Notes: generated by a model from the sequence alone, not told the origin. Shown: positions 3,970-25,557, counted from the stretch's first letter. The stretch: DNA of 47,709 nt from a bacterium (GCA_050125095.1 JASFEA010000005.1:1-47709), one strand, 5' to 3'. Program-made: numbers and translations.

Positions 3970-4282
3970 GTCCCCGCCTGCGAGCAATATGCAGTTGGGG
4001 CGCTATAGCAGCGTAGTCTACGGAAACGGAAGCACATGGAGGTGCGAAAAAGGGGGCTATGTTTTGTATCCCCTGCAATCTTGTTATGAACACAGGATTT
4101 CGTACTTCAAGAGGATCCTACCTGACCTGGTAATCCGAATGGGGACCTGTATATCCAAGGATGGAGCTCTGTATCCAGAACTAAAGTCCACTTTGTGAAA
4201 GGAGGTGGTGTGGAGCAGTTGCATGCGGCCGTCCGCATGCAGTGGTAAACCAATAACGCTTTACCAACCATAAGGAGGAGTG

Positions 4283-7198: not shown

Positions 7199-7243
7199 TT
7201 TTGAAGTGGATTTGAAGTAGCAACAAGGAAGTTGCACTTTGGT

Positions 7244-7289
7244 GGACCGGGGTTCTAAGGGTAAGACCTGGAGCCCCGGTTCCGCTTTT
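7244..7289 (+). terminator. Intrinsic terminator
   Basis: GGACCGGGGTTCT...GGAGCCCCGGTTCC stem followed by GCTTTT. Confidence 0.65.
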
Positions 7290-7395
7290 CCCCTATTTCT
7301 GGCCTAATTCGTTGCCCCGTAGTGGATTATGAATATATCGCCCCGCCCGGGGTGAATTATTTTATATCCCATGCTTTTTGATATACCCCATTCAG

Positions 7396-7424
7396 TTGAC
7401 ATATCTCAATGCTTGTGATAAAAT
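7396..7424 (+). promoter_or_regulatory. Sigma70-type promoter for 7682 gene
   Basis: TTGACA-N17-TAAAAT with TG extension, AT-rich upstream. Confidence 0.7.
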
Positions 7425-7681
7425 TTATTTGTTGGAAGTAGTGGAGCAGGATTTCCGCTGCGAGCGGTACCCCACACGGAAGTGCCGAAAATCGAATAGA
7501 TTATGAGATTTTTGCATATTCTGGCGAAGTGAGAAGTCAGGTCAGCAAAGCGGGAACTGCCGACAATTTCACGAACGAGGAGGTGTAACGATCGGAAGTT
7601 GCTAATGACGGCGTGTACTGACCACATGCCGCTTGCGCTTCGGTCGGCTAACCACCTGTGTTGTGGAAAGGAGAAGGGACA

Positions 7682-10609: not shown

Positions 10610-10631
10610 CTGGCTCTGTTCGTAGACCCCT

Positions 10632-10669
10632 GGGGGCAGGTTCCTGAGGGACCTGCCCCCCTTGCTTTT
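10632..10669 (+). terminator. Intrinsic terminator
   Basis: GGGGGCAGGT...ACCTGCCCCC stem followed by CTTGCTTTT. Confidence 0.65.
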
Positions 10670-10804
10670 CCCCGGAGCCTTCTTCCCGAGTCCGCCATAT
10701 GAGTTGATTTGCTGCGGGTTTTCTGGTAACCTTGATGAGAAATGAAGAGAGCCGCATTGAACGACCGGGCGGGGCGCTGGAGGGCCGTACACGGGAGGAT
10801 GCAT

Positions 10805-11581
10805 ATGTCTTTGAGAAAAGAAGTTCTAGCGGGTTTGTTTGCGGCAGGATTGCTTGTCGCTGCCACAGGGGCAGGCGCGATAGAGATGTCAATGCCCGAT
10901 ACTACGGCCGCCCGGGGCGAAACGCTGTATATTCCCGTATGGTCATCCGACCTGACGGACTCCAATGTCTATTCCTACCAGTTCATCATGTCCTATGATT
11001 CAGCGTTCGTGAAGATAGTCGACGTGTCAAACGACGGCTCGATCACGGACGTGCCCCCATGGCTGGGCCCGGCTTGGCATATAAGAGAGGGAGAGGACTC
11101 CCTCAGGGTTGCGTCGGCCGGGGTTGAGCCGCTCTCAGGCGAGGGGCTGTTCGTTCTCATAGGCCTGGAAGTGCTGGCCACGGCGCCTGCCGACTCGGGC
11201 ATATACCTCGACCTGCATGACTTCGTGTTGAATGAGGGCGTGCCCGGCGCGGTCCCCGACGGCGGGTGGCTATTCATCGGCTCCGCCGGTGTCGAGCCGG
11301 TCCGCGGAGACTCGGGCGGCCCGGTGAGACTTGAAAGGCTGTCCTCCACTTCCGTGCGCTGGCATCTGGCTGACGCGGATACGCATGACTCGCGCCTCGA
11401 GATATACGATGCTTTCGGCAGGTTCGTGGCCTCGGTGCGGCCCGCCGCGGCGGACGACGCCGTAGCTTTCACCTGGGAAGGCAGGAACTCTGGAGGCGGC
11501 GCCGTCTCCGGCGGGGTTTACTTCTACAAGCTGACGTCGGGCGAGAAGCAATACAGCGGTAAAGTCTGCATCCTGAAGTAA
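10805..11581 (+). CDS. Secreted single-cohesin protein with FlgD-like C-terminal domain
   Basis: Signal peptide; GETLYIPV..DL...VYSYQF.MSYD...LRVASAG..PLSGEG (cohesin-like); IYDAFGRFV...FTWEGRN..G.AVSGGVYFYKL. GGAGG RBS. Confidence 0.75.
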   Translation: MSLRKEVLAGLFAAGLLVAATGAGAIEMSMPDTTAARGETLYIPVWSSDLTDSNVYSYQFIMSYDSAFVKIVDVSNDGSITDVPPWLGPAWHIREGEDSLRVASAGVEPLSGEGLFVLIGLEVLATAPADSGIYLDLHDFVLNEGVPGAVPDGGWLFIGSAGVEPVRGDSGGPVRLERLSSTSVRWHLADADTHDSRLEIYDAFGRFVASVRPAAADDAVAFTWEGRNSGGGAVSGGVYFYKLTSGEKQYSGKVCILK

Positions 11582-11764
11582 AGGGCGGGCTTTCGCTTGC
11601 GTCCGCATGGATTACGTTCTCATCGCCATAATTCCACTTTCCCATAAGGAAACGGCATCAATTGCTGCCTGCACCCCTGCCGCCTTATTTTCAATGGACT
11701 TAGCTGGGTCATGGCAGTCCGGAAATGGGCCGAATTATTATATTGTTAGGTTTCGTACAATATA

Positions 11765-11794
11765 TTGACATCCTCATCTCAATCATGATACAAT
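11765..11794 (+). promoter_or_regulatory. Sigma70-type promoter for 11932 gene
   Basis: TTGACA-N18-TACAAT with TG extension. Confidence 0.6.
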
Positions 11795-11931
11795 ACGCTG
11801 CCAATATGGGGGTCGTATGCCCCTGTGCATACGATTTCTGCTACTTCGCAATCGGGGCGCATGAGACGGTGGGAGGAGCTGCTGCGCGATCCAGTTTTCC
11901 TGCGTTCCGGAACAGGAAAGGAGCGCTCTCC

Positions 11932-14817
11932 ATGAGACGCCACGCCTTGGTTATAGCCCTGCTTCTTTTAGCTCTTGTGGCGACGGTGCCGTCCGGCACT
12001 TCCGCCATCGAGGGCAAAAAGGACTTCGTGGACGAGGACAGTTACGGCCAGGGGGAATTCGTCGGTTACCGGGCCAATTTGCCCGCCCGCCAGTATCACG
12101 AACACGCCTACCTCCCGAGCCAGGTCGCCGACCAGGCGACCCTGACGCCCGACACATTGAGGGCGACGCTTCAGGCCGGGCAGTCGGTGGAGGAGCACAA
12201 GATCCTCCACCTGCCGCCGGATGTGGCTCCGGCTAAAGGTGACATTATATTCTCCTTCGACGTCACCGGCAGCATGGGGAACGCTATCGCAGAGGTTAAG
12301 AACAACGCGTCCGCCATCATGGATTCGGTGAGGGCTCTCATTCCCGACACTTATTTCGGTGTCATGTCGCATCAGGACTACCCGGCATTCTACGACTACT
12401 GCGGCTACGCCGAGGCTTATGGCAACCCCGATGTCGGAGATTCGCCCTACAGGCTCAACCAGCCGCTAACGGGCGACCTAATGGCCGTGCATGGCGCGAT
12501 AAACGGCCTGACCCTGGGCGACGGGGCCGACGGGCCCGAATCATACGCCCGGGTGCTTTACGAGGCCACGGCTGACGCCACCGTGGGCTGGCGTGACGGC
12601 TCCACCAAGATGGTGATCCTCTGGGGAGACAATGTGCCGCATGACTGCGACTACAGGCGCTGCATCGGGGGCAGCGGCACCACGGGTATAGATCCCGGCC
12701 GCGACGAGGTCGCCGGAACGGCGGACGACCTGGAGATCCTGGATGTCATCACCGATATGGCCCTCCAGGACATTTTACTACTTGCCATGTACAACGGTCT
12801 CTCTCCGACCACCCTGAACCTCTGGAACTGCTGGGCCAAGAGGACCGGCGGAGCGTCCTTTGAAGTCAACCCTGACGGCACGGTTCCCGGCGGCGAGGAC
12901 CTGCCTTCCTATATAGCGGGTATCATCAGCGAGCAGTTCAGCGAGATAGACGTCATGACCCTGGAGGTCTGCCAGCCCGAGTACGCCGCCTGGCTTACCG
13001 ACGTCAATCCGGCAGCCTATTATGACATCACGCTGGACGTGGCGCATGATCTTCACTTCGACATAACCATAACGGTCCCGCCGGGAACGCTCGCCGGGCT
13101 CTATTGCTTCGATATCTGCGCGGTGGGTGACGGCGCAATATACGCCACGCAGAACGTCTGCATAAGGGTGCTGCCCGGCGGCTGCATCGACCTCGAGATC
13201 GGTTGCGTGTATGACGCCGACCCGTTCGCCATGATCAGCGTTCCCGTGTTCGCGGGCGACTTCGACGACTGGGGGATCGACGGCGTGGACGTCGAGGTCT
13301 GCTGGTGCGACGAGCCCGCGGGCTTCATGACCTTCTATGACTGCACACCGGGCCCGGTGCTCAACAACGCCGGCTGGACGGGTTTCTACTGCGAGTCCAC
13401 CGGTCCGAACTGCATAACGTTCCACGCGAGCGATGGCACTACGCTCAGCGGTTCGGATACGCTCTTTACGCTTCACTTCATGCCTGACGAGGGTGCGGCT
13501 CCTTGCGAATGCTGCAGCCTCACCTTCGGAGACATTTCGCTCACCGCCGGCCAGTTCGAGGCGCCGGTGTGCTCGGTCGAGTGCGAGGTATGCATAGCCG
13601 CATGCAGCGTCGAGGGCTATGTCTTCAACTGGTACTGCGAGGAGAACGGCGAAGTCGTGCGCACGCATCCAATCGAAGGCGCCGACGTGATTCTCGACTG
13701 GTGCGGGACTCCGCAGGGAGGGCGCGTCACCGACTCGGACGGCTACTATCTCTTCGACTGCCTGCCGCCGGAGTATGAGTGCCCGTGGTGCGTGACGGCC
13801 CAGCACCCGCCCATCCCGGGGAATATCCGCGCGTATGACGCCTCGCTCATCCTGCAGTACACCGTTGGGGCGCTGGATCTCATGGACTGCCCGTTCGAAA
13901 CCGACGGCGGCACGGTCTATCCTCAGAGGGTGGCCGGCGACGTCAGCTGCGCGGGCGGACTCGGCGCGTACGACGCTTCCATAATTCTCCAGTTCGTGGT
14001 AATGTACATAGACTCGTGGCCCTGCGGCTACTTCTGGGAGTTCATCCCCAGCCAGGACTGCGACTGGGAATGCAACAAGCAGATAGACTTCATGGGAGTG
14101 CTTCTCGGCGACGTCTCGGGCCCTATGCCCCCGCCGCCGGCTGATCCCGACCAGGTGCCCGTGTGGCTCGACGTTCCCACGCATTACAGCGACAAAGTCG
14201 AGCTCGTCATAAAGATAAAGAACGGCGCTGCGATCTGCGCGGGCGAGTTCGTGGTCACGTTCGATTCGGACGCGCTGAATTTCAATGTGGCCGAAGCCGT
14301 TGGGGTCGCGGACGGCTTCATGGTGGCGACATTTGAGCCCTCTCCCGGCACGCTCAACGTAGCGATAGCCGGCAACGAATGCGTGGACGGTTCCGGCAGG
14401 CTCGTGAAGCTGACTTTCGATAAGAAGTACATGTCCATGCCTGTCGTGGAGCCCATGGTGGAGCTCTACTCGGCGCTCTTCAATGAGGGCGTGCCCGAAG
14501 CCGCCATAAAGGACAGGGACTGGGAGGAAGAGGTGCACGGTCTCGTATCGCTCGGACCGGTGTCGCCCAATCCGTTCGCGACGGGCACCGACATCAGGTT
14601 CAGTCTTCCTTCCACGGCGGCGGTCAAGATCGACATCTACGACGTGACGGGGCAGCTCGTCCGGACGCTTGTGGATGAGGACATCTCGGCCGGGGCGCAT
14701 AACGTGGGCTGGGACGGCACGGATTCCTCCGGCGACAGGGTGGCCCGTGGAGTCTACTTCGTGCGCATGGCCGCCGGTGAATTCCGGGCCTCGGAGAAGA
14801 TCGTCCTTCTCAAGTAG
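11932..14817 (+). CDS. Secreted Cys-rich VWA-cohesin-dockerin-cohesin-FlgD protein (third VWA paralog)
   Basis: ATG 11932 after AAAGGAG; signal peptide; [54 protein letters not shown]; FlgD-like tail. Confidence 0.85.
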   Translation: MRRHALVIALLLLALVATVPSGTSAIEGKKDFVDEDSYGQGEFVGYRANLPARQYHEHAYLPSQVADQATLTPDTLRATLQAGQSVEEHKILHLPPDVAPAKGDIIFSFDVTGSMGNAIAEVKNNASAIMDSVRALIPDTYFGVMSHQDYPAFYDYCGYAEAYGNPDVGDSPYRLNQPLTGDLMAVHGAINGLTLGDGADGPESYARVLYEATADATVGWRDGSTKMVILWGDNVPHDCDYRRCIGGSGTTGIDPGRDEVAGTADDLEILDVITDMALQDILLLAMYNGLSPTTLNLWNCWAKRTGGASFEVNPDGTVPGGEDLPSYIAGIISEQFSEIDVMTLEVCQPEYAAWLTDVNPAAYYDITLDVAHDLHFDITITVPPGTLAGLYCFDICAVGDGAIYATQNVCIRVLPGGCIDLEIGCVYDADPFAMISVPVFAGDFDDWGIDGVDVEVCWCDEPAGFMTFYDCTPGPVLNNAGWTGFYCESTGPNCITFHASDGTTLSGSDTLFTLHFMPDEGAAPCECCSLTFGDISLTAGQFEAPVCSVECEVCIAACSVEGYVFNWYCEENGEVVRTHPIEGADVILDWCGTPQGGRVTDSDGYYLFDCLPPEYECPWCVTAQHPPIPGNIRAYDASLILQYTVGALDLMDCPFETDGGTVYPQRVAGDVSCAGGLGAYDASIILQFVVMYIDSWPCGYFWEFIPSQDCDWECNKQIDFMGVLLGDVSGPMPPPPADPDQVPVWLDVPTHYSDKVELVIKIKNGAAICAGEFVVTFDSDALNFNVAEAVGVADGFMVATFEPSPGTLNVAIAGNECVDGSGRLVKLTFDKKYMSMPVVEPMVELYSALFNEGVPEAAIKDRDWEEEVHGLVSLGPVSPNPFATGTDIRFSLPSTAAVKIDIYDVTGQLVRTLVDEDISAGAHNVGWDGTDSSGDRVARGVYFVRMAAGEFRASEKIVLLK

Positions 14818-14844
14818 GCGGAGCGTATAGATGGAGGTTAGTGG

Positions 14845-14917
14845 TCCCCCGGCACCCAGGTGCCGGGGGATTCATCGGGGGGCATGCAACCCACGCGCAT
14901 GCCCCTCGCAGTCTTTT
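14845..14917 (+). terminator. Double hairpin 3' element / terminator
   Basis: TCCCCCGGCAC-CCAG-GTGCCGGGGGA, then GGGGCATGC...GCATGCCCC, then a T-rich tract. Confidence 0.65.
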
Positions 14918-14971
14918 CATTTTCCCACAGGAAACTTCTGGATTTTTTGCTAAATTACGTAAATATCCACT

Positions 14972-15000
14972 TTGACACAATTCACTATATCTGATATACT
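14972..15000 (+). promoter_or_regulatory. Sigma70-type promoter (conserved cassette promoter 1)
   Basis: TTGACA-N17-TATACT; context TTTGACA...TCTGRTATACTGC shared by five genes. Confidence 0.8.
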
Positions 15001-15091
15001 GCCGCCGCTGTTTTAAAGGACCGGGCTTGGGGTCAAAGGACGGGTCTACTTCCCGGTCATAAGAGCAGACTCAGACTCACTCCTCATTTGC

Positions 15092-15110
15092 GTGGGGCAA
15101 AGAAAGGAGG
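15092..15110 (+). promoter_or_regulatory. Conserved 5'-leader motif copy 1 (orphan SD-containing)
   Basis: GTGGGGCAAAGAAAGGAGG, 82 nt upstream of ATG 15193. Confidence 0.75.
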
Positions 15111-15192
15111 GGATGCGGCACCCCCGCGGGAAGCACATGCCAACCAAAGTCTGTCTAATCAGTAGTTAGAACAAGGAGGAGGTAGAAAGACA

Positions 15193-16953
15193 ATGCTGCG
15201 CAGATCAGCGCTTATCTTTGCCGCGGTTCTTCTCGCCGTCGGTCTGGCTGCGCCCGCGTTCTCGGCTGAGACCGGCGGCAAGCTGGATGATTGCATTTCC
15301 ATACGTATAGGCGACATCATCGCCGACCCGGGCGAGGACATCTCCGTGCCGGTTTACCTTTCGGACGTGACCGGCTGGGGCGTAATGGCCTTCGAGCTGG
15401 AGATATGCTGGTGCGAACTCCCGGCGGGGCTTCTCCAGTACGTGCGATGCAGGCCCGGCGAAATTCTTACCAATGCTGTGGGCTGGGGGCCGCCCGTCTG
15501 CGGTCAATGCGGGCCCAACTGTGTGGATATTGCGGACGCCGGCGCTTTTGCCCTGGAAGGCAGCGGCGTGCTGTTATATCTCGACTTCCATATAAGCGCC
15601 AACGCCAAGCCGTGCATGTGTTGTGAACTGTGGTTCGAGGAGGTCAACCTGTACGATCCGGAAGACCCGCTCAATGTCTGTGGCAGCGGAGGCGAGGTCT
15701 GCATAGACTGGTGCGACATCAGCGGGACCATCATGGCCTGGTACTGCGCCTACGATGGCTGCGGCGACCTGTTCCGCACTACGCCGCTCCCCGGGGTCCG
15801 CGTGCACCTGTACCAGTGTGATGAACCCGTCGCCACTACTTACACCGACGATGCGGGCAAGTTCCTGTTCGAATGCATGCCGCCCCTTCCCATCCCGGGC
15901 GAGAAAGAAGTCTGTCCCTACTGCGTCGAGATAGACTACTGCGCGGTGCCGCGCGGCCTGATTACGGCATTCGACGCCGCCATCGTACTCAAGTATCTCG
16001 TGTGCTTGGACGACCTCATGTGCTGCCCCATCTTCCAGTGCGGCGACTGGGTGTACCCGCAGATGGTGGCTGCGGACGTGAACTGCACGGATGTTATCAC
16101 CGCCTATGACGCGTCCCTCATTCTGCAGTATGTAGTGGGCCTCATCCCGGCATTCCCGTGCCCGGACATGTGGAGCTGGTACTTCGCGCTCTGCCGGAAT
16201 TGCGAGCATTACTGCCCGGCCGGCTTTGGAATAACAGGGGTCCTCAAGGGCGACGTATCGGGATACTGCTATCGTGATGCCCCGGTTCTCACGGGAGCCT
16301 CGCCCGAGATCGAGCTGGGGATTCCGAGGCACTTCGGCGATTATGTCGACGTGCCCGTCAGCGTGAAAAACGCGACTGACATTCACTCGGCGCAGTTCGA
16401 AGTGACTTATAATGAAAGGGACTTCGCCGTCATAAGCGTCGAGACGGCGGGGCCCGCCAGCGGCTTCCTGTCGGCGTTCAACGCCGACGGCGGCAGCCTG
16501 CTCGTGGCCATGGCTAGCTCATCGAGCTTCAGCGGAAACGGCGACATAGCCGTGATACGGCTCAAGAAGAAGCATGCGCCCATACCGACGGCCTCCACGC
16601 GCATGGAGATGGCAAGCGCTCTCTTGAATGAGACGGCGCCAGCCATCGACAAGAAGCCGCGCGACGCGGAAATCGTGCGGTTCGGGCTCGGGCCTATATC
16701 GCCCAACCCGTTCACCGACGACGCCGTTATCGCCTACAGCGCGCCTTCGAGCTCGGGCCTCTCAATCGGTATCTACGATGTGAATGGCCGCCTCATACGC
16801 GCCCTGCGAAGCGGCGGGGTCAGCGCCGGCACCCATCAGGTGACCTGGGACGGCCGGGACGAAAACGGCGTCAGGGTGGCCAGGGGCGTCTACTTCTGTC
16901 GCATGAACGCCGGCGAGTTCAGCGCCACCGAGAAGGTGGTATTGCTTAAATAG
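15193..16953 (+). CDS. Secreted Cys-rich cohesin-dockerin-cohesin-FlgD protein
   Basis: Signal peptide; [80 protein letters not shown]. Confidence 0.85.
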   Translation: MLRRSALIFAAVLLAVGLAAPAFSAETGGKLDDCISIRIGDIIADPGEDISVPVYLSDVTGWGVMAFELEICWCELPAGLLQYVRCRPGEILTNAVGWGPPVCGQCGPNCVDIADAGAFALEGSGVLLYLDFHISANAKPCMCCELWFEEVNLYDPEDPLNVCGSGGEVCIDWCDISGTIMAWYCAYDGCGDLFRTTPLPGVRVHLYQCDEPVATTYTDDAGKFLFECMPPLPIPGEKEVCPYCVEIDYCAVPRGLITAFDAAIVLKYLVCLDDLMCCPIFQCGDWVYPQMVAADVNCTDVITAYDASLILQYVVGLIPAFPCPDMWSWYFALCRNCEHYCPAGFGITGVLKGDVSGYCYRDAPVLTGASPEIELGIPRHFGDYVDVPVSVKNATDIHSAQFEVTYNERDFAVISVETAGPASGFLSAFNADGGSLLVAMASSSSFSGNGDIAVIRLKKKHAPIPTASTRMEMASALLNETAPAIDKKPRDAEIVRFGLGPISPNPFTDDAVIAYSAPSSSGLSIGIYDVNGRLIRALRSGGVSAGTHQVTWDGRDENGVRVARGVYFCRMNAGEFSATEKVVLLK

Positions 16954-16985
16954 GACATTTCCAAGCGTGCCGTTACGGCGCGTCC

Positions 16986-17023
16986 GAGGGGGCATGGTCC
17001 CAGGGGGCATGCCCCCCTCTTTT
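16986..17023 (+). terminator. Intrinsic terminator (GGGGCATG family)
   Basis: GAGGGGGCATG...CATGCCCCCCTC-TTTT. Confidence 0.75.
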
Positions 17024-17075
17024 GTCCGCGCATCCCATGTGGTAAATCTCATGAAAGCAGCCTATATCAAATAAT

Positions 17076-17104
17076 TTGACAAAGTTTATAGTTTCTGATA
17101 TACT
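17076..17104 (+). promoter_or_regulatory. Sigma70-type promoter (cassette promoter 2)
   Basis: TTGACA-N17-TATACT. Confidence 0.8.
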
Positions 17105-17193
17105 GCAATTCGTTGCGAGAGCCGGAGATATGGGACTGCGGCAGTCCCGTATTGCCCGGTCTCGCAAAAGACACTCAATAACTCCTCAATCGT

Positions 17194-17212
17194 GTGGGGC
17201 AAAGAAAGGAGG
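17194..17212 (+). promoter_or_regulatory. Conserved 5'-leader motif copy 2
   Basis: GTGGGGCAAAGAAAGGAGG, preceded by a long hairpin at about 17113-17167. Confidence 0.75.
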
Positions 17213-17285
17213 CGAGTCACTCAGCAGTATCCCCCTGGGGAGTACACGCCGACGGTATTCTGTTTAAGTAGGAGGTTTGACAACA

Positions 17286-19067
17286 ATGCAAAGGAGATCA
17301 GCCCTTCTGCTCGCTGCGGTGGTAATCGCGGTGAGCTTTGCTCTGCCCGCGTACTCCGCCGAGAGCGGCGGGACGCTGGATGACTGTCTCCATATGAACA
17401 TCCCGTCTCTGACGGCCAATCCCGGCGAGGACATAACCGTCCCGGTGTACATCTCTGATGTGACCGGATGGGGCGTGATGGCGTTTGAAGTGGAGATATG
17501 CTGGTGCGAGCTGCCTGCGGGCCTTCTCCAGTATGTGGGATGCAAGCCCGGTATGATGATGCACGACGCCAACTGGTCCATTTCATGCGGGGCCTGCGGC
17601 CCGAATTGCATCAGCGTGGCCGGCGCCGGCGCCGTCCCGCTCAACGGATCGGGACCGCTCTTCTATCTCTATTTCCACGTGAGCGCCAACGCCAAGCCTT
17701 GCATGTGCTGCGACATATGGTTCACCGAGATCAATTTGTATGATCCCGAGGACCCGCTCAATGTCTGCTGGAGGGACGGCGAGATCTGCATCGAGCACTG
17801 CGACGTCTACGGGGCCACCTTCACATGGTGGTGCACTTACGGCGACTGCGGCGAAGTCCGCTTCGAATACCCGCTTCCGGGTGTGAGGGCCCATGTCTCG
17901 CGCTGCGGCGAGCCCATCGCCACCGATTACACCGACGCGCGGGGCCTTGTCGCGTTTGAGTGCCTCGAGCCACTGCACAACAACGACGGCGGCCTTATCG
18001 ATTGCGGCTACTGCATGACCGTGGACTACTGCCCCATTCCGCGTGAATGGATCAACCCGTTCGACGCGGCCCTCATTCTCCAGTACCTGGTGTGCACCGA
18101 ACAGCTCGACTGCTGCGCCTTCCCGTACTGCAATGACCCGAGTCTGGGGGGAGGCATGGTGTACCCGCAGAGGATCGCGGCCGACGTCAACTGCACTAGC
18201 GTGATCACGGCGTATGACGCGTCGCTCATCCTCCAGTATGTAGTCGGCCTGATTCCCGCGTTCCCGTGCCCCGACCCGTGGGTCTGGGAACCCATAATCT
18301 TCTGCGATGAGTGCCAGGAAGTCTGCCCGGCGTATTTCTTCTTCTTGGGCATACTCAAGGGCGACGTATCGGGCATGTGTTACCGCCCGGACGAGACCCC
18401 CACGCTGGCTGCGACCTCGACGGTCAAGCTGGGCGTGCCCAAGCACTTCGACGGCTACGTGGAAGTTCCCGTCAAGGTCAAACATGCGGACAATGTCTAC
18501 TCGACCCAGTTCGAGGTCACCTACAATGCGGGTGACTTCGACGTGACGCAGGTGCGCGGCTCGGGCCTCGGAGCGGGCATGATGACGGCTTACAACGCCG
18601 ACAACGGCAATTTGCTGATCGCCATGGCGGGCTCCACGCCCTTCAGCGGCAACGGCACGGTTGCCACGGTCACGCTTCAGAAGAAGCACACGCCGATACC
18701 CGTGGCGTCTACGCGCTTGGAGCTGACGAGCGCGCTCCTCAACGAGACCGCTCCGGTGATCGAGGGCCATGAGTACGATGGCGAGGTGGTTCGTTTCGCG
18801 CTGGGCCCGGTATCGCCTAACCCGTTCAGGGACGCTGCTGTCATAAGTTACAGCGCTCCGAAGGCGGCGAGCGTATCGATCGGCGTCTATGACGTGAACG
18901 GGCGGCTGGTACAGACGGTATACAGCGGCCAGGTGGAAGCCGGCGCGCATCAGGTTACCTGGGACGGTAAAGACACCTCCGGATCCAGGGTAGCCAGAGG
19001 CGTGTACTTCTGCCGCATGAGTGCTGGAGAGTTCAGCGCCACCGAGAAGATGGTGTTACTCCAGTAG
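17286..19067 (+). CDS. Secreted Cys-rich cohesin-dockerin-cohesin-FlgD protein
   Basis: Same motifs as the 15193 gene; AGGAGG RBS; about 30 Cys in the N-terminal ~365 aa. Confidence 0.85.
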   Translation: MQRRSALLLAAVVIAVSFALPAYSAESGGTLDDCLHMNIPSLTANPGEDITVPVYISDVTGWGVMAFEVEICWCELPAGLLQYVGCKPGMMMHDANWSISCGACGPNCISVAGAGAVPLNGSGPLFYLYFHVSANAKPCMCCDIWFTEINLYDPEDPLNVCWRDGEICIEHCDVYGATFTWWCTYGDCGEVRFEYPLPGVRAHVSRCGEPIATDYTDARGLVAFECLEPLHNNDGGLIDCGYCMTVDYCPIPREWINPFDAALILQYLVCTEQLDCCAFPYCNDPSLGGGMVYPQRIAADVNCTSVITAYDASLILQYVVGLIPAFPCPDPWVWEPIIFCDECQEVCPAYFFFLGILKGDVSGMCYRPDETPTLAATSTVKLGVPKHFDGYVEVPVKVKHADNVYSTQFEVTYNAGDFDVTQVRGSGLGAGMMTAYNADNGNLLIAMAGSTPFSGNGTVATVTLQKKHTPIPVASTRLELTSALLNETAPVIEGHEYDGEVVRFALGPVSPNPFRDAAVISYSAPKAASVSIGVYDVNGRLVQTVYSGQVEAGAHQVTWDGKDTSGSRVARGVYFCRMSAGEFSATEKMVLLQ

Positions 19068-19101
19068 ATAGAGGATTCAACGCGCCTAGTGGGGCGTTTA
19101 T

Positions 19102-19136
19102 AAGGGGCATGTTCCCAGGGGCATGCCCCTTCCTTT
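19102..19136 (+). terminator. Intrinsic terminator (GGGGCATG family)
   Basis: AAGGGGCATG...CATGCCCCTT-CCTTT. Confidence 0.7.
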
Positions 19137-19238
19137 ATATCTTCGTAATTATCTCGCTCGGCATGTGCCGGCCGGAAGTGCCCGCGAACGCGGGCCCGGG
19201 ACGGATTCAGCTATACTGCGTTTCTTATCAGAAGACAT

Positions 19239-19267
19239 TTGACAAGGAAACATTCTTCTGATATACT
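19239..19267 (+). promoter_or_regulatory. Sigma70-type promoter (cassette promoter 3)
   Basis: TTGACA-N17-TATACT. Confidence 0.8.
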
Positions 19268-19381
19268 GCACGCGCAAGTTGCGAGAGGCAACCGGGGCAA
19301 GATACGGGGCGATTTAGCGGGGCTTCCAGTTCGCTGCTGGTGGTAAAGCCTCATAGAGGCGTTTAATATATTCCACTGCGC

Positions 19382-19400
19382 GTGGGGCAAAGAAAGGAGG
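19382..19400 (+). promoter_or_regulatory. Conserved 5'-leader motif copy 3
   Basis: GTGGGGCAAAGAAAGGAGG. Confidence 0.75.
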
Positions 19401-19467
19401 CGAGATGAACTACTTCCCCATGTCATTCTCAAGAGGAGCTTCATTTCCACAGGAGGTAAATACAACA

Positions 19468-21237
19468 ATGAGACGAATTCTGGTTCTTATGGCAGCCGTG
19501 CTCGTGGCGGGTGGCGTTGCCATACCTGCCTTTGCGGCTGAAACGGGGGGCCAGCTCGACGACTGCATCCATGTCCACATCGGCAACGTCATCGCCAACC
19601 CTGGTGAGGATATACAGGTGCCGGTCACTATCTCCAATGTCACCGGCTGGGGTGTAATGGCTTTCGATATGGAGATATGCTGGTGCGAACTTCCCGCAGG
19701 GCTCCTGCAGTTCACGGACTGCTCCCCTGGCGAGGTCGTCCTTAGCTCCGGCTGGATGCTGGGAGCCTGCGGCATGTGCGGTCCCAACTGCGTGACGGCG
19801 GTGGCTGCCGGCGCAACTCCACTGATTGGTGAGGGCGTTCTCTTCTATCTCAACTTCCACGTGAGCGCAAATGCCAAGCCCTGCATGTGCTGCCAGCTGT
19901 GTTTCGAGGAAGTCAATCTCTACGATCCTGAAGAGCCGCTCAACGTATGCGCGTATTGCGGCGAGGTCTGCATAGACTACTGCTCGGTCAAGGGCCAGAT
20001 CACCGCCTGGTACTGCAGGGAGGGCCCCTGTGAGGATGTCCATTACATGCCTCAGGAGGGTGTGAGGGTCCACCTTTCGCAGTGCGATGAGGCCATAGCC
20101 AGCACATATACGGACTCTGACGGCTTGTTCATGTTCGACTGCCTCGATCCTCTGGACGGCGTCCAGACCTTGCAGCCCTGCCCTTACTGCCTCGAACTCG
20201 ATGATTGCGCGGTTCCTCGCGCTCTGATCAATGCGTTCGACGCGTCGCTTATCTTGAGGTACCTGGTGTGCATGGACTATCTGACCTGCTGCGCCTTCGA
20301 CTACTGCGACGATTGCGACAAGCCAGGCATGGTCTACCCCCAGCAGGTAGCAGCCGATGTCAACTGCACCGGCATGATCACGGCGTATGACGCGTCGCTC
20401 ATACTGCAGTTCGTGGTGGGGTTGATTCCGGCATTCCCGTGCCCGACCAATTGGGTATGGTACTGGATGGACTGCTTCGATGGGTGCACATATGACTGCC
20501 ATACCTCGGTATGGGCCATCGGCGTTCCCAAGGGCGACGTCTCGGGTTACTGCTACGCCGGAGGCGGGAAACTTGCGTTGACCACGCCCACGGTCAAGCT
20601 GGGTATTCCAGAGCACTTCGACGGTTACGTGGAAGTCCCCGTGATGGTTAAGAATGCGGAGAACATATACTCCACGCAGTTCGAAGTCGAATACAACGCA
20701 GGCGACTTCGACGTGACGCAGGTGACTGGCGTCGGTCTGGGTAGCGGCATGATGACCGCATACAACGCCGACAACGGCAACCTCCTGATCGCCATGGCGG
20801 GCTCATCGCCCTTCAGCGGCAGCGGCAAGGTGGCGAAAGTAACGCTTCAGAAGAAGCACACGCCTATACCTGTCGCTTCAACGCGCATGGAGATCACGGG
20901 CGCGCTTCTCAATGAGGCCGAGCCCGTGATAGAGGGCCATCAGTACGATGGTGAGGTCGTTCGCTTCGCGCTGGGCCCGGTATCGCCCAACCCGTTCAGG
21001 GACGCTGCAGTGATCAGCTACAGCGCTCCCCAGGCGGCCAGCGTGACGATCGACGTCTATGACGTTAACGGCAGGCTGGTACAGACGGTGTACAACGGCC
21101 AGGTGGAAGCCGGCGCGCATCAGGTAACCTGGGACGGCCGCGACAGCGCGGGCGACAAGGTTGCCAGGGGCGTGTACTTCTGCCGCATGAGTGCTGGAGA
21201 GTTCAGCGCGACCGAGAAGATGGTGCTGCTCCAGTAG
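19468..21237 (+). CDS. Secreted Cys-rich cohesin-dockerin-cohesin-FlgD protein
   Basis: Same motifs as paralogs; AGGAGGT RBS before ATG 19468 (in-frame ATG 19405 also exists). Confidence 0.85.
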   Translation: MRRILVLMAAVLVAGGVAIPAFAAETGGQLDDCIHVHIGNVIANPGEDIQVPVTISNVTGWGVMAFDMEICWCELPAGLLQFTDCSPGEVVLSSGWMLGACGMCGPNCVTAVAAGATPLIGEGVLFYLNFHVSANAKPCMCCQLCFEEVNLYDPEEPLNVCAYCGEVCIDYCSVKGQITAWYCREGPCEDVHYMPQEGVRVHLSQCDEAIASTYTDSDGLFMFDCLDPLDGVQTLQPCPYCLELDDCAVPRALINAFDASLILRYLVCMDYLTCCAFDYCDDCDKPGMVYPQQVAADVNCTGMITAYDASLILQFVVGLIPAFPCPTNWVWYWMDCFDGCTYDCHTSVWAIGVPKGDVSGYCYAGGGKLALTTPTVKLGIPEHFDGYVEVPVMVKNAENIYSTQFEVEYNAGDFDVTQVTGVGLGSGMMTAYNADNGNLLIAMAGSSPFSGSGKVAKVTLQKKHTPIPVASTRMEITGALLNEAEPVIEGHQYDGEVVRFALGPVSPNPFRDAAVISYSAPQAASVTIDVYDVNGRLVQTVYNGQVEAGAHQVTWDGRDSAGDKVARGVYFCRMSAGEFSATEKMVLLQ

Positions 21238-21271
21238 GTTTATGATTAAATGCGCTCATTTGGGGCGCCTT

Positions 21272-21305
21272 AAGGGGGCATGTTCTCGGGGCATGCCCCC
21301 TTCTT
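21272..21305 (+). terminator. Intrinsic terminator (GGGGCATG family)
   Basis: AAGGGGGCATG...CATGCCCCCTT-CTT. Confidence 0.7.
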
Positions 21306-21435
21306 CTGTCTTGCTCCTTCCTCTGTAGGGCCGGATCCACGTCGTGCCTGCTCCAGGGACCCGGCCGCGAAGCCGGGCGGGGCGGAACCACACTTATTTT
21401 GATAAACCTTATTTTTAGCACTATATCTATTGCGT

Positions 21436-21464
21436 TTGACAAAGCGCATAAATTCTGATATACT
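21436..21464 (+). promoter_or_regulatory. Sigma70-type promoter (cassette promoter 4)
   Basis: TTGACA-N17-TATACT. Confidence 0.8.
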
Positions 21465-21547
21465 GCAAACCTGGTGCGAAAGTATTTCGGCGCCGGGGGC
21501 GCTCACACGCCCTCCGGGCACCGTAAGACTAGTATCTCCTTTTTTAC

Positions 21548-21566
21548 GTGGGGCTTGGAAAGGAGG
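21548..21566 (+). promoter_or_regulatory. Conserved 5'-leader motif copy 4 (variant)
   Basis: GTGGGGCTTGGAAAGGAGG(TGA). Confidence 0.7.
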
Positions 21567-21645
21567 TGACCCACACCGTCTTGTGCTTAACCCTGCCTTT
21601 GAGAGATGCAAATCGATCCATAGTCGCCTGAGGAGGACCAGAACA

Positions 21646-23421
21646 ATGATACGGAGACTGGGTTTACTGTTTATTGTCTCCGTTCTCGCGATGTCGGCCA
21701 TGGGAGCGCCGGCCTATTCGAGTGAGAACGGCGGACAACTCGATGATTGTATTCATGTCTCGGTTTACAGTGTCAAGGACGCGAGGCCGGGTACCGACAT
21801 CTTCGTGCCGGTCGTGATCTCAGAAGTCACGGGCTGGGGCATCCTCGCCTTTGAAATGGAGATCTGCTGGTGCGATATCCCGGCCGGGCTTCTCCAGTAC
21901 GTGGAGTGCGCGCCGGGCCCGGTGATGGAGAACTCGGGCTGGATGCCGCCCATCTGCAATCCATGCGCCCCAAATTGCATAAGCATCGCTGCCGCAAGCC
22001 CCATGCCGCTTATGGGTAACGGTCCGCTTTTCTACCTTAAGTTCCATGTAAGCGCAAACGCAAAGCCCTGCATGTGCTGCGACATCATGTTCGAGGACGT
22101 CAAGCTCTATGACCCCGAGGACCCGCTGAATGCATGCGTACAGAACGGGGTGGTCTGCATAGATTATTGCGATGTAATAGGCGTGCTGAAGCACTGGCTT
22201 TGCTTCTACGACCCCTGCGAGGGCTGGTACCGCGGGCTCGGGCTCCCGGGCGCCAGAGTGCACCTCTGGGATTGCCACGGTCCGGTGGCCAGCGAATACA
22301 CTGACAATATGGGATACTTCAGTTTCCAGTGCCTCGACCCGCTTGACGTCCAGGCTGCAGAGGGCGGGCAGGACTGCTACTACTGCGTCGGCATCGACTA
22401 CTGCGCTATTCCGCGCGGCTGGATAACCGCGTATGACGCCTCGCTGATCCTGCAGTATCTTGTTTGCGCCGACGGCCTGCAGGATTGCTACTTCACGCTC
22501 AACGGCGGCGGCATTTACCCGCAGCAGGTCGCGGCTGACGTTAACTGCACCGGCGTGATAACCGCCTACGACGCCGCGCTTATACTGCAGTACATCGTAG
22601 GCATGCTGCCGACGTTCCCGTGCCCCGATATGTGGGTCTACTATGTGATGGACCCGGGAAGCTGCACGTTCACCTGTCCGGCATTCATTGAGTTTGTCGG
22701 GATTCTCAAGGGCGACGTGTCGGGTCCGCCGGTCGGGGGCGGCGAGTTGCTGGCGGTGCCTACGGCGTACATGAAACTCGGCGCAGCCATACCGCAGGGA
22801 GACTATATCGACATACCGGTCCTCGTTGAGGACGCCACAGACGTGTTCGCGGCCGAGTTCGAGATGACTTTCGACAATGAGCGCTATTCCTTTGTCGATG
22901 TCATACCCGTGGGCTTGGGAAGCGGCTTCTTCCTGAGCGCGCGCGAAGAGGACGGCCATGTCTTCACCGCGATGGCCAGGGCTACGAGCTTCACCGGGAG
23001 CGGCAGACTTGCCAAAATCAGGCTGGAGAGGATTCCGGGGTCGATGCCCGGGGCGACGCTGCGGCCCAGCCTGGCGGCCGCCATGTTGAATGAGGGCATA
23101 CCGGAGGTCGAGATCATAACGCGGGGGACCATTCCCATCGCCGAGGAATTCCGGCTCGGACCGGTTTCGCCCAATCCGTTCAGCCAGGGCACTATGATTA
23201 CATTCAGCGCGCCCGGGGCGACCGAGGTGGCCATAGATATATATAATGTGCACGGCCAGGTCGTGCGCTCGGTCTTCAGCGGCACCGCCGACGCAGGCCG
23301 GCATGAAGTGGCCTGGGACGGCACCGACAGCCGCGGGTCAAGAGTGGCGAGAGGCGTCTATTTCTGCCGCATGCACACGGGCAATTTCAGCGCCACAGAG
23401 AAGATAGTGGTACTTCAGTAA
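21646..23421 (+). CDS. Secreted Cys-rich cohesin-dockerin-cohesin-FlgD protein (divergent C-terminal half)
   Basis: Same N-terminal and dockerin-like motifs; second cohesin more diverged; GAGGAGG RBS. Confidence 0.85.
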   Translation: MIRRLGLLFIVSVLAMSAMGAPAYSSENGGQLDDCIHVSVYSVKDARPGTDIFVPVVISEVTGWGILAFEMEICWCDIPAGLLQYVECAPGPVMENSGWMPPICNPCAPNCISIAAASPMPLMGNGPLFYLKFHVSANAKPCMCCDIMFEDVKLYDPEDPLNACVQNGVVCIDYCDVIGVLKHWLCFYDPCEGWYRGLGLPGARVHLWDCHGPVASEYTDNMGYFSFQCLDPLDVQAAEGGQDCYYCVGIDYCAIPRGWITAYDASLILQYLVCADGLQDCYFTLNGGGIYPQQVAADVNCTGVITAYDAALILQYIVGMLPTFPCPDMWVYYVMDPGSCTFTCPAFIEFVGILKGDVSGPPVGGGELLAVPTAYMKLGAAIPQGDYIDIPVLVEDATDVFAAEFEMTFDNERYSFVDVIPVGLGSGFFLSAREEDGHVFTAMARATSFTGSGRLAKIRLERIPGSMPGATLRPSLAAAMLNEGIPEVEIITRGTIPIAEEFRLGPVSPNPFSQGTMITFSAPGATEVAIDIYNVHGQVVRSVFSGTADAGRHEVAWDGTDSRGSRVARGVYFCRMHTGNFSATEKIVVLQ

Positions 23422-23446
23422 GAAACAGTGTATTCGGAGTGATGCC

Positions 23447-23472
23447 GGGGCCGCCGGGAAGCCGGCGGCCCC
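23447..23472 (+). terminator. GC-rich 3' hairpin (no clear U-tract)
   Basis: GGGGCCGCCGG-GAAG-CCGGCGGCCCC, 25 nt after the stop codon. Confidence 0.5.
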
Positions 23473-23556
23473 ACACCTGGCCTAAGGCATGGTTTATGAC
23501 GGGATTAGGGCCGATCGTGGACAGCATTCGCCCGGACAAAAAGATTGACACCCTGT

Positions 23557-23585
23557 TTGACAAAGGTTGATAATTCTGGTATACT
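23557..23585 (+). promoter_or_regulatory. Sigma70-type promoter (cassette promoter 5)
   Basis: TTGACA-N17-TATACT; extra TTGACA at 23545-23550. Confidence 0.8.
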
Positions 23586-23673
23586 GCATTCCCGGTGCGA
23601 TACGGGGTATGGCTGCAAGGCTCAATAACCCGAGGAGACACCTGTAATATAGGCTCTTAGCAACCTCCACAGC

Positions 23674-23692
23674 GTGGGGCAAAGGAAGGAGG
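23674..23692 (+). promoter_or_regulatory. Conserved 5'-leader motif copy 5
   Basis: GTGGGGCAAAGGAAGGAGG(TGA). Confidence 0.75.
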
Positions 23693-23784
23693 TGAAGTGG
23701 GAATTGCGATGCTATCCCGCCTGGAGGTCGATTCTAAACCTTTGTCTTTTGAAAGAACGTAGAATTAAGGGAGGGGGAGTAAAC

Positions 23785-25557
23785 ATGTCTAAAGGACTAA
23801 TGACAACTCTTCTTGCCGGGCTCATCGTGGTGAGCTTCCTCTTCGCCCCGGGTGCTTATGCTGCTGAAAGCGGCGGCACACTGGATGATTGCATTCACAT
23901 GTCCATAGGGAATGTGAAGGGGATGCCCGGCGAAGACATTATGGTTCCGGTCCTGATATCCGACGTTACGGGCTGGGGCGTAATGGCAATGGAAATGACC
24001 ATCTGCTGGTGCGAGCTGCCCGCAGGGCTCATTCAGTTCGAGGGCTGTGAAGGCGGCGAGGTCGTCGAGAACTCACAATGGTTCCTGGGCGAGTGCGGAA
24101 CATGCGGTCCCAACTGCGTTACGGCAGCTGCGGCCGGCGCGACGCCGCTCGTGGGCGGGGGCGTTCTCTTCTACCTCAAGTTCCACGTAAGCGCCAATGC
24201 CAAGCCCTGCATGTGCTGCGAAATCCGGTTCGAGGAAGTCTATCTCTACGACCCGGAAGATCCGCTCAACGTGTGCATCACGAACGGCGAGGTCTGCGTG
24301 CCCCACTGCGACATCTACGGCCGGGTGGTGCACTGGTGGTGCGAGCAGGAGCCGTGCGGAGACTGGATAATGCCGTATCCCATCCCGGGCGCGCGCGTCC
24401 ATCTCTGGGATTGCCACGGTTCGGTGGCGACTGACATCACCGATACCGACGGCCTGTTCGCCTTCGAGTGCCTGTATCCGCTTCTCGACAATAACGGCCA
24501 GCCCGTCACGCCCGACTGCTACTATTGTTTCGACGTGGAGCATTGCGCGCTTCCGAGCAGGCTGGTTACGCCGTACGACGCGTCGCTGATTCTGCAGTAT
24601 CTTGTCTGCACGAACGGCCTCAGCAATTGCGTGTTCAATCACTGCGGATACAACGTTTACCCGCAGCAGGTGGCGGCCGATGTCAACTGTACGGGCATGA
24701 TCACGGCTTATGACGCCTCGCTCATACTGCAATACGTAGTCGGCCTGATTCCTGCATTCCCGTGCCCGGATCCCTGGGTCTGGTACAGGTTCCCGTGCGG
24801 CGGGTGCCTGGTAGACTGCTCGCCGAACATGAAAGTCGGCATTGTCGGCCTGATCAAGGGCAACGTGTCGGGCAAGCCCGTTCTGACCACCACCCTCGTT
24901 CCCACGGCGACGGTCAAGCTGGGTGTGCCCAAGCACTTCGACGGCTACGTTGAAGTTCCCGTCAAGGTCAGGAACGCCGACGCCGTCTACTCGACCCAGT
25001 TCGAGGTCGCCTACAACGCCAGCGACTTCGACGTGACACAGGTGGTCGGCTCCGGTCTCGGAGCGGGCATGATGACCGCCTATAACGCCGAAAGCGGCAA
25101 CCTCCTGATCGCAATGGCGGGCTCGTCGCCCTTCAGCGGCGACGGCACGGTTGCCGTGGTCACGCTTCAGAAGAAGCATACGCCGCTGCCTGTGGCTTCC
25201 ACACGCGTGGAGCTGACGAGCGCGCTCCTGAACGAGACCGAACCGGCCATAGAGGGTCATCACTACGAAGCGGAAATCGTGCGCTTCGCCCTCGGCCCGG
25301 TATCGCCCAATCCGTTCAGGGACGCCGCGGTCATAAGTTACAGCGCCCCCCAGGCGGCCAGCGTATCGATAGATATCTATGATGTAAACGGCCGGCTGGT
25401 ACAGACGGTCTACAGCGGCCAGGCGGAAGCCGGCGCGCATCAGGTAACCTGGGACGGCCGCGACAGCGCGGGCGACAAGGTTGCCAGGGGCGTGTACTTC
25501 TGCCGCATGAGCGCCGGGGAGTTCAGCGCCACCGAGAAGATGGTGATGCTGCAGTAG
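23785..25557 (+). CDS. Secreted Cys-rich cohesin-dockerin-cohesin-FlgD protein
   Basis: Same motifs as paralogs; GGAGGGGGAG RBS. Confidence 0.85.

Follow-up and report, generated by a model that had tools for sequence, protein, structure and literature searches.

The 5' untranslated region (UTR) of cry3A of Bacillus thuringiensis carries a STAB-SD, a stabilising sequence of Shine-Dalgarno (SD) type that does not initiate translation, binds the 3' end of the 16S ribosomal RNA (rRNA) and stabilises the mRNA (Agaisse and Lereclus 1996, in PMC4113751). The STAB-SD of cry3A lies more than 100 nt upstream of the start codon, adjoins the processed 5' end of the transcript and blocks RNase J1 (PMC4113751). 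Most of the documented untranslated SD stabilisers come from Bacillus and related bacteria, in which RNase J1 accounts for them. In the present work, a stretch of bacterial DNA of 47,709 nt (GCA_050125095.1, JASFEA010000005.1:1-47709; the whole stretch is referred to as the window) was analysed, in which a 19-nt element containing an extended SD recurs in the leaders of five tandem paralogous genes. Like the STAB-SD of cry3A (PMC4113751), this element is SD-like, apparently non-initiating and complementary to 16S rRNA, and is located in a long 5' UTR of very highly expressed genes. Unlike the cry3A element, which sits at a processed 5' end, it lies within the leader as judged from the predicted transcript starts, with its SD fused to an invariant GUGGGGC for which a matching antisense loop exists, and RNase J was not found in the genome. 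The element would work most like a STAB-SD, but it was not filed as a member of that class because RNase J, which is defining in Bacillus, was not found.

Small RNAs (sRNAs) of the RsaE/RoxS type act independently of Hfq, with a C-rich sequence exposed in a loop pairing with G-rich SD regions, and their contacts consist of short CCCC seeds at true ribosome-binding sites (RBSs). RsaE/RoxS has been given as an example of the C-rich-loop sRNAs (PMC4409812), whereas the loop described here copies 10 nt of the 16S tail together with nine specific nucleotides. In Staphylococcus aureus, a C/U-rich anti-SD motif in the 3' UTR of icaR pairs with the SD, competes with the ribosome and makes a substrate for RNase III (PMC3868564). 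That motif is 7 nt long and acts in cis on the true RBS of its own mRNA (PMC3868564), whereas the pairing considered here would act in trans, over 19 nt, on an untranslated SD present in six mRNAs. In Listeria monocytogenes, the 3' UTR of hly pairs in trans with the 5' UTR of prsA2, altering stability (PMC8722363). The likeness to this system lies in the 3' end of one mRNA pairing with the 5' UTR of another, with the difference that the hly-prsA2 pairing protects against RNase J1 and involves no SD mimic (PMC8722363). What is new here is a perfectly conserved hairpin, on another contig of the genome, with a loop antisense to the leader motif.

The pattern GTGGGGCWWRGRAAGGAGG was matched without mismatch at five positions on the plus strand of the window (Table 1), with the first three copies reading GTGGGGCAAAGAAAGGAGG, the fourth GTGGGGCTTGGAAAGGAGG and the fifth GTGGGGCAAAGGAAGGAGG. 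A sixth match, with three mismatches, was identified at position 2192, while dinucleotide shuffles of the window gave a mean of 0.10 matches and none of 100 shuffles reached six. The five sites had been reported in an initial annotation made from the sequence alone, and exact matches at all of them, with about 0.1 expected by chance, bear this out. From copy 1 to copy 5, the distance between the end of the -10 box and the motif was found to be 91, 89, 114, 83 and 88 nt, and that between the end of the motif and the ATG 82, 73, 67, 79 and 92 nt, which agrees with the spacings of 83-114 nt and 67-92 nt that had been described. Each of the five genes was also found to possess its own AGGAGG-type SD 6-10 nt upstream of its ATG, confirming that a separate true RBS exists for every copy. 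Alignment of the five intergenic regions gave a mean column identity of 54%, with the invariant columns in the -35 and -10 boxes and the motif, in keeping with the remark of the initial annotation that the leaders do not otherwise align. The pyrimidine tracts ahead of the motif and the hairpin at 17113-17167 were both present, and the description given by the initial annotation was correct in every detail checked. The products of all five genes (586-593 aa) were found with Pfam to contain Cohesin, FlgD_ig and Por_Secre_tail domains, and since these are present in all of them the genes look like those of secreted surface proteins of the type IX secretion system (T9SS).

The genome to which the window belongs (G000; 3.35 Mb, 91% complete) is part of a small, uncultured phylum that comprises only 18 species genomes. 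Searching G000 with the motif pattern and at most one mismatch gave seven matches, all on the forward strand, with none for a reversed control pattern. These comprised the five copies of the window, one in the leader of a sixth paralog of about 590 aa (contig C111) and one on contig C19 (TTGGGGCAAAGAAAGGAGG); the motif is present in six of six leaders of the paralogs of about 590 aa in this genome. Two other genomes of the same genus (G014 and G015) gave three and seven matches, nine of which lie about 100 nt upstream of orthologs, the tenth being the homologue of the match on contig C19. A set of 15 genus leaders was obtained (six from G000 and nine orthologous), 14 of which had enough upstream sequence for analyses that include the promoter, and the same promoter was identified 82-114 nt ahead of the motif in all 14. 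Between orthologs, identity was 97% in the motif, compared with 63% in the leader 5' of it, 71% in the leader 3' of it, 73% in the region of the true SD and 78% in the first 30 nt of the coding sequence; no other part of the leader is as constrained as the motif. Its GTGGGGC half was found to be invariant in 15 of 15 genus leaders, with conservation equal to that of GGAGG. When the 22-nt form was scanned against one genome per species (185,579 species), only six stretches were recovered, in two assemblies that correspond to G014 and G015, and the full motif is therefore confined to a single genus.

Examination with Rfam gave no match at the gathering score over the whole window, nor any with E values up to 1 in the region 14800-24000 or at the C111 and C19 loci (L006, L007 and L018). 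The suggestion that the candidate lies outside known families holds for the window and these related loci, and the motif is a real, selected element of 5' leaders that is absent from Rfam. The 19-mer is probably a shared handle on the stability or translation of the six paralog mRNAs. Two groups of candidates were discarded during these searches. Matches with one mismatch in genomes G003 and G011 were accompanied, within the stretch examined, by neither the promoter nor the gene context and were treated as chance, while a metagenome scan with GTGGGGCNNNGNAAGGAGG returned at least 118 stretches, with leader context in none of the matches listed, the pattern being too loose.

Evidence at the RNA level was available from contigs with at least 99% identity, assembled from four wetland metatranscriptome runs covering three samples and three studies. 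Four contigs that join the motif to the coding sequence were found, for copies 2, 3 and 4, with a further contig starting inside the motif of copy 5 (Table 1). These contigs fit a location of the motif in the 5' UTR, with the reservation that DNA in RNA libraries is possible and that contig ends need not equal true transcript ends. The contig of copy 2 starts 71 nt ahead of the motif. Those of copies 3 and 4 start 25-30 nt ahead of it and that of copy 5 inside it, not at the predicted transcript starts, which may be a weak hint of a processed 5' end or simply a result of low coverage. No weight was placed on the stretches between terminators and leaders that lack RNA contigs.

The 3' end of the 16S rRNA gene of G000 was found to be GGATCACCTCCTTTCT, which makes AGAAAGGAGG a perfect complement of 10 nt, with the pairing extended by a following TGA in copies 4 and 5. 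Contiguous pairing of the motif with the 16S tail amounts to 10 pairs, or 12-13 in copies 4 and 5; the complementarity that had been stated in general terms in the initial annotation is hence established against the 16S rRNA of this very genome. The predicted duplex with 16S rRNA ranged from -19.0 to -25.3 kcal/mol for the motif, compared with -11.5 to -15.4 kcal/mol for the true SDs, and was the stronger of the two in 14 of 14 leaders. Untranslated extended SDs were furthermore identified about 100-125 nt upstream of the start codon in all five readable leaders of orthologs of about 600 aa in three other genera, namely tAGAAAGGAGGTGA in G005 and G006, AGAAAGGGGGTGA in G001 and G002 and GAAAGGAGGTGA in G008. 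These are not accompanied by GTGGGGC, and the orphan SD predates the full motif. Orphan SDs without GTGGGGC were likewise found in the leaders of two of three larger paralogs in the window, which makes the orphan SD a trait of the family and the 19-mer a trait of the subfamily.

Neither pairing with 16S rRNA nor a fold accounts for the GTGGGGC half. The match on contig C19 is the only one in 3.35 Mb outside the leaders (none with the reversed control), and it was found to lie in a predicted hairpin on the minus strand (G000 C19:6545-6606, corresponding to L007:1470-1531), with homologues in L018 and L170. The hairpin is situated in a convergent intergenic region about 110 nt past the stop codon of a ferritin gene, which follows genes for desulfoferrodoxin and rubrerythrin on the minus strand. 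When read on this strand, a 13-bp stem (GUGGGGUGGGAGC/GCUCCUGCCCCAC) encloses a loop of about 37 nt and is followed by UUCUCUAUUUUGU, a U/C-rich tail like that of the organism's other terminators. Two pairs of the stem are G-U when the minus strand is read, the plus strand having C-A mismatches at these places, and the predicted fold amounts to -35 kcal/mol for the minus and -27 kcal/mol for the plus strand. Transcription of the minus strand is suggested by these G-U pairs, by the U/C-rich tail and by the synteny with ferritin. The element adjoins ferritin in all three genomes of the genus, with a different gene on its other side and with the G014 copy cut by the end of a contig; because ferritin was found in only four of the 18 genomes of the phylum, this synteny is unusable outside the genus.

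The start of the C19 loop, CUCCUUUCUUUGCCCCAA, together with the closing GC, was found to be the exact complement of UGGGGCAAAGAAAGGAGGC. Contiguous pairing between loop and leader extends over 19 pairs in 12 of 14 leaders and over 18 in copy 1, while in copy 4 it is divided into 11 and 6 pairs around a 2x2 internal loop, with the duplexes predicted at -32 to -40 kcal/mol. A seeded RNAduplex scan was not discriminating, as shuffled loops reached -42 to -54 kcal/mol compared with -40 to -45 kcal/mol for the leaders, and only contiguous complementarity is consequently informative. Every A-to-G variant among the leaders (positions 8, 9, 10 and 12) is situated opposite a loop U, with G-U pairing being kept, and pairs with the loop are lost only in the copy-4 type (AAA to UUG). 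GGAGGC, which fits the loop, is found in 10 of 15 genus leaders, compared with GGAGGT, which fits 16S rRNA, in all other genera. The G000 and G015 copies of the hairpin with its loop match at every position over about 77 nt, whereas the 89 nt upstream show 74% and the 72 nt downstream 47% identity. On its far side, the loop is antisense to GGTGCGAAA, which resembles box 1 (GKTGCGA), a sequence about 8-12 nt past the -10 box that is exact in nine of 14 genus leaders, variant in four and absent in one (copy 1), and with which the 5' hairpin of a leader usually begins. As the loop is thus antisense to a second leader sequence, the C19 element probably derived from a leader fragment. The genus-specific GUGGGGC half would be best explained by the antisense loop.

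A separate observation at this locus concerns the sequence immediately 5' of the hairpin on the minus strand (L007:1522-1546), which overlaps the 5' arm and reads GGG-UUA-GGG-AUGUGU-GGGG-U-GGG, a canonical four-tract G-quadruplex pattern. Its G tracts are kept in G014, with different loops (AUA and UUGUGU), and a G-quadruplex might form in place of the hairpin and so release the C19 loop.

We propose that the 19-mer would serve as a single-stranded RNA docking site in a leader of about 180-200 nt and would be read via base pairing in two layers. In the first of these, ancestral and common to other genera, (A)AGAAAGGAGG(TGA) would act as an untranslated extended SD that captures the 16S 3' tail more tightly than the RBS of the gene itself. 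The 30S subunit held in this manner might be a STAB-SD-like stabiliser against 5'-end-dependent decay, obstructing an endonuclease that depends on the 5' end, or might occupy a standby site from which a partly structured true RBS is fed. In the second, genus-specific layer, the full site UGGGGCAAAGAAAGGAGG(C) would pair with its exact complement in the loop of the conserved hairpin, a candidate RNA of terminator type, with the loop imitating the 16S tail (CCUCCUUUCU) and extending it (UUGCCCCAA). This partner would be the 3' end of the ferritin transcript, or a small RNA derived from that transcript, and its pairing at the orphan SD would displace the 30S subunit and form a 19-bp duplex, a possible substrate for RNase III. 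RNase III is present in G000, and Hfq was not found in this genome. All six surface-protein genes would thereby be tied to an oxidative-stress/iron cluster.

The capture of 30S subunits by the SD half is considered to have a slightly better than even chance of being correct, and pairing of the C19 RNA with the site in vivo a somewhat less than even one. The two-layer explanation as a whole is evenly balanced, while it is fairly likely that at least one of its layers is right. A more far-reaching form, in which redox or iron status would switch the surface-protein family by means of a regulatory RNA whose 16S-tail-mimic loop competes with the 30S subunit for a non-initiating SD, is put forward tentatively. 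The same caution applies to its corollary, that the regulator, with a loop copying the 16S tail and nine specific nucleotides, may go back to a leader fragment captured in inverted orientation, as it also retains antisense to leader box 1.

Several results weigh against this two-layer explanation. For the SD half, extended SDs of 10-13 nt were found to act also as ordinary RBSs in G000, with many of the apparent orphans located within genes, and SD length alone is therefore not special. The predicted unpaired probability of the motif ranged from 0.06 to 0.78 and was low in several leaders. The motif also lies 76-107 nt from the predicted transcript start and not at the 5' end. The TIGR00649 profile for RNase J gave no match in the 91%-complete G000, in which homologues of RNase Y and RNase E/G are present, and a stabilising mechanism, if there is one, must therefore differ from that of Bacillus. 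The stabiliser or standby role suggested in the initial annotation accordingly stands in part: its fit to 16S complementarity and to the orphan SDs of three genera is the best among the ideas considered, and the location of the motif about 67-93 nt ahead of the ATG of a gene with its own SD would suit a STAB-SD, while the RNase J on which the Bacillus mechanism relies was not found.

For the antisense half, the fold of the C19 partner was not significantly better than that of shuffled sequences (z -0.97), and neither strand differed significantly from shuffles. No promoter passed the scan at the C19 locus; by eye, a weak TTGCGC-N17-TATGTT is conserved there in all three genomes of the genus. 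Covariation between seed and target was not visible in this set, with a loop that does not vary and a G014 copy truncated at the end of its contig. When genera g5, g2 and g6 were searched for a sequence antisense to their orphan SD, only the leaders themselves or matches at control level were recovered. Furthermore, the plus strand of the C19 element resembles a miniature leader (box 1, motif and CCCCAC), which makes it possible to read it as a same-sense decoy.

The nearest competing explanation is that only the SD half matters, as a STAB-SD or standby site, with GTGGGGC being genus-specific context (a spacer or a weak helix) and the C19 hairpin a ferritin terminator built from a leader fragment. 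It agrees with the retention of the orphan SD without GTGGGGC in the three other genera and with a 16S duplex that surpasses the true RBS throughout, and the leader-like box 1 and CCCCAC of C19 fit descent from a leader. However, GTGGGGC is invariant in every genus leader yet part of no supported helix, a plain terminator would not be expected to hold a loop of 37 nt identical while its flanks diverge as described, and the absence of RNase J among the proteins found in G000 counts against it as well; this explanation is regarded as rather unlikely. The orphan SD could alternatively be a protein site, for example one for a CsrA-type dimer bridging GGA elements, with the plus strand of C19 as a small decoy. 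Two CsrA homologues above the Pfam cut-off were identified in G000, every leader contains three GGA/GGAG elements, of which one is in the motif, one is a GGAG about 45 nt farther downstream and one is the true SD, and the plus strand of C19 carries AGGAGC and AAGGAGG between leader-like flanks. Against this, the conserved GUGGGGCAAAGAAAGGAGG matches 16S rRNA perfectly and a CsrA site is much shorter than this sequence, the GGA is presented by no conserved hairpin, and the strand evidence at C19 favours the minus strand, with no conserved promoter on the plus strand, leaving a protein site improbable.

The initial annotation had also raised the idea of a two-state switch, here taken to include a thermometer, in which the orphan SD, UGGGG and the true SD would be alternative pairing partners of a CU tract ahead of the motif. 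CU-rich tracts do precede the motif in most copies, an 8-bp helix of the copy-2 type (ACUCCUCA/UGGGGAGU) encloses it (p 0.05-0.09 compared with shuffles), and forcing the motif open or blocking it changed the predicted accessibility of the true SD in four of 14 leaders, blocking causing a decrease. In the other 10 there was little effect, L017 lacks the CU tract altogether, and the pyrimidine-tract/purine-tract and GGGG/CCCC helices did not exceed shuffles (p 0.05-1.0). RNAalifold on the 15 leaders returned four pairs at -1.95 kcal/mol with no compensatory changes, six single-sequence folds were no stabler than shuffles (z -0.62 to +1.76), and the Rfam search at the permissive threshold was negative. 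With no conserved fold found, the switch is without support and is considered very unlikely, and the behaviour of the element is that of a sequence read as such and not folded, which fits the docking site of the two-layer explanation. A last possibility is that the SD drives a short open reading frame (ORF) in the leader, or an N-terminal extension in copy 3, with ribosome traffic as the signal. Start codons were indeed found 2-6 nt past GGAGG in several lineages (copies 1, 3 and 5; L010, L014 and L017; leaders of g2, g5 and g6), and the ATG of copy 3 is in frame in three of three orthologs. However, no ATG, GTG or TTG occurs near the SD in seven of 15 genus leaders (those of the copy-2, C111 and copy-4 types), the encoded peptides lack conservation and the reading frame differs from ortholog to ortholog, so that the absence of a conserved upstream ORF reported earlier is upheld, and a leader ORF as the function of the SD is the least probable of these alternatives.

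In the copy-3 group, the ATG lies 2-4 nt past the orphan SD and in the frame of the gene in all three orthologs (window 19405-19467, L017 and L014). It would add about 21 residues ahead of the signal peptide, and the added peptide is not conserved.

The device documented in Bacillus is here apparently conserved over four genera of a small uncultured phylum, in a genome where RNase J was not found. If functional, capture of 30S subunits on leaders would be a more general means of mRNA protection or loading, and an RNA that mimics the 16S tail and competes for such a site would, if true, represent a new regulatory logic. The 19-nt site and the 19-nt antisense loop form a testable pair, and as the site is coupled to consensus promoters, the leader is a compact candidate for high-level expression.

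Table 1. Leader motifs, promoters, box 1 sequences, paralogous genes and orphan SDs of the window
Feature	Coordinates	Strand	Remarks
Orphan SD GAAAGGAGGTGG	4197..4208	+	Leader of larger paralog starting near 4280
Orphan SD-like GAGGAGGTGTAAC	7577..7589	+	About 95 nt 5' of ATG 7682, next larger paralog
Paralog 1 promoter (TTGACA-N17-TATACT, TG extended -10)	14972..15000	+	
Leader motif copy 1, GTGGGGCAAAGAAAGGAGG	15092..15110	+	16S duplex -20.3, C19-loop duplex -36.4 kcal/mol (predicted)
Paralog 1, 586 aa, Cohesin + FlgD_ig + Por_Secre_tail	15193..16953	+	
Paralog 2 promoter	17076..17104	+	
Box 1 of leader 2, GTTGCGAGAG	17112..17121	+	Predicted leader 5' end; opens 5' hairpin
Leader motif copy 2	17194..17212	+	RNA-library contig 17123-17398 links motif to ATG
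Paralog 2, 593 aa	17286..19067	+	
Paralog 3 promoter	19239..19267	+	
Box 1 of leader 3	19278..19287	+	
Leader motif copy 3	19382..19400	+	In-frame ATG 4 nt past GGAGG; RNA-library contigs 19352-21107 and 19357-19578
Paralog 3, 589 aa	19468..21237	+	
Paralog 4 promoter	21436..21464	+	
Box 1 of leader 4, GGTGCGAAAG	21473..21482	+	
Leader motif copy 4 (CTTGG variant, then TGA)	21548..21566	+	16S duplex -25.3 kcal/mol (predicted), strongest; RNA-library contig 21522-21730
Paralog 4, 591 aa	21646..23421	+	
Paralog 5 promoter	23557..23585	+	
Box 1 of leader 5, GGTGCGATAC	23594..23603	+	
Leader motif copy 5 (A12G variant, then TGA)	23674..23692	+	RNA-library contig 23677-23982 starts within motif
Paralog 5, 590 aa	23785..25557	+	

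Each of the five genes was found to possess a promoter of the consensus form listed for paralog 1. The array is preceded at 4280-14817 by the three larger paralogs, which are 972-1030 aa in length and have VWA-like N-terminal parts. A near-identical palindromic terminator (GGGGCATG...CATGCCCC) followed by a U/C-rich tail was identified after four paralogs, at 14879-14905, 16989-17015, 19104-19129 and 21275-21299, and is conserved, although the spacer around it shows no such conservation.

Another SD-like leader motif, GGGGGTGRTGCC, was observed after strong promoters at four positions in G000, namely C3:14720(+), C3:13497(-), C35:21320(+) and C90:1051(-). Downstream of the copies on C35 and C90 the sequence is nearly identical for about 100 nt, and these two loci may therefore be two copies of one structured RNA.

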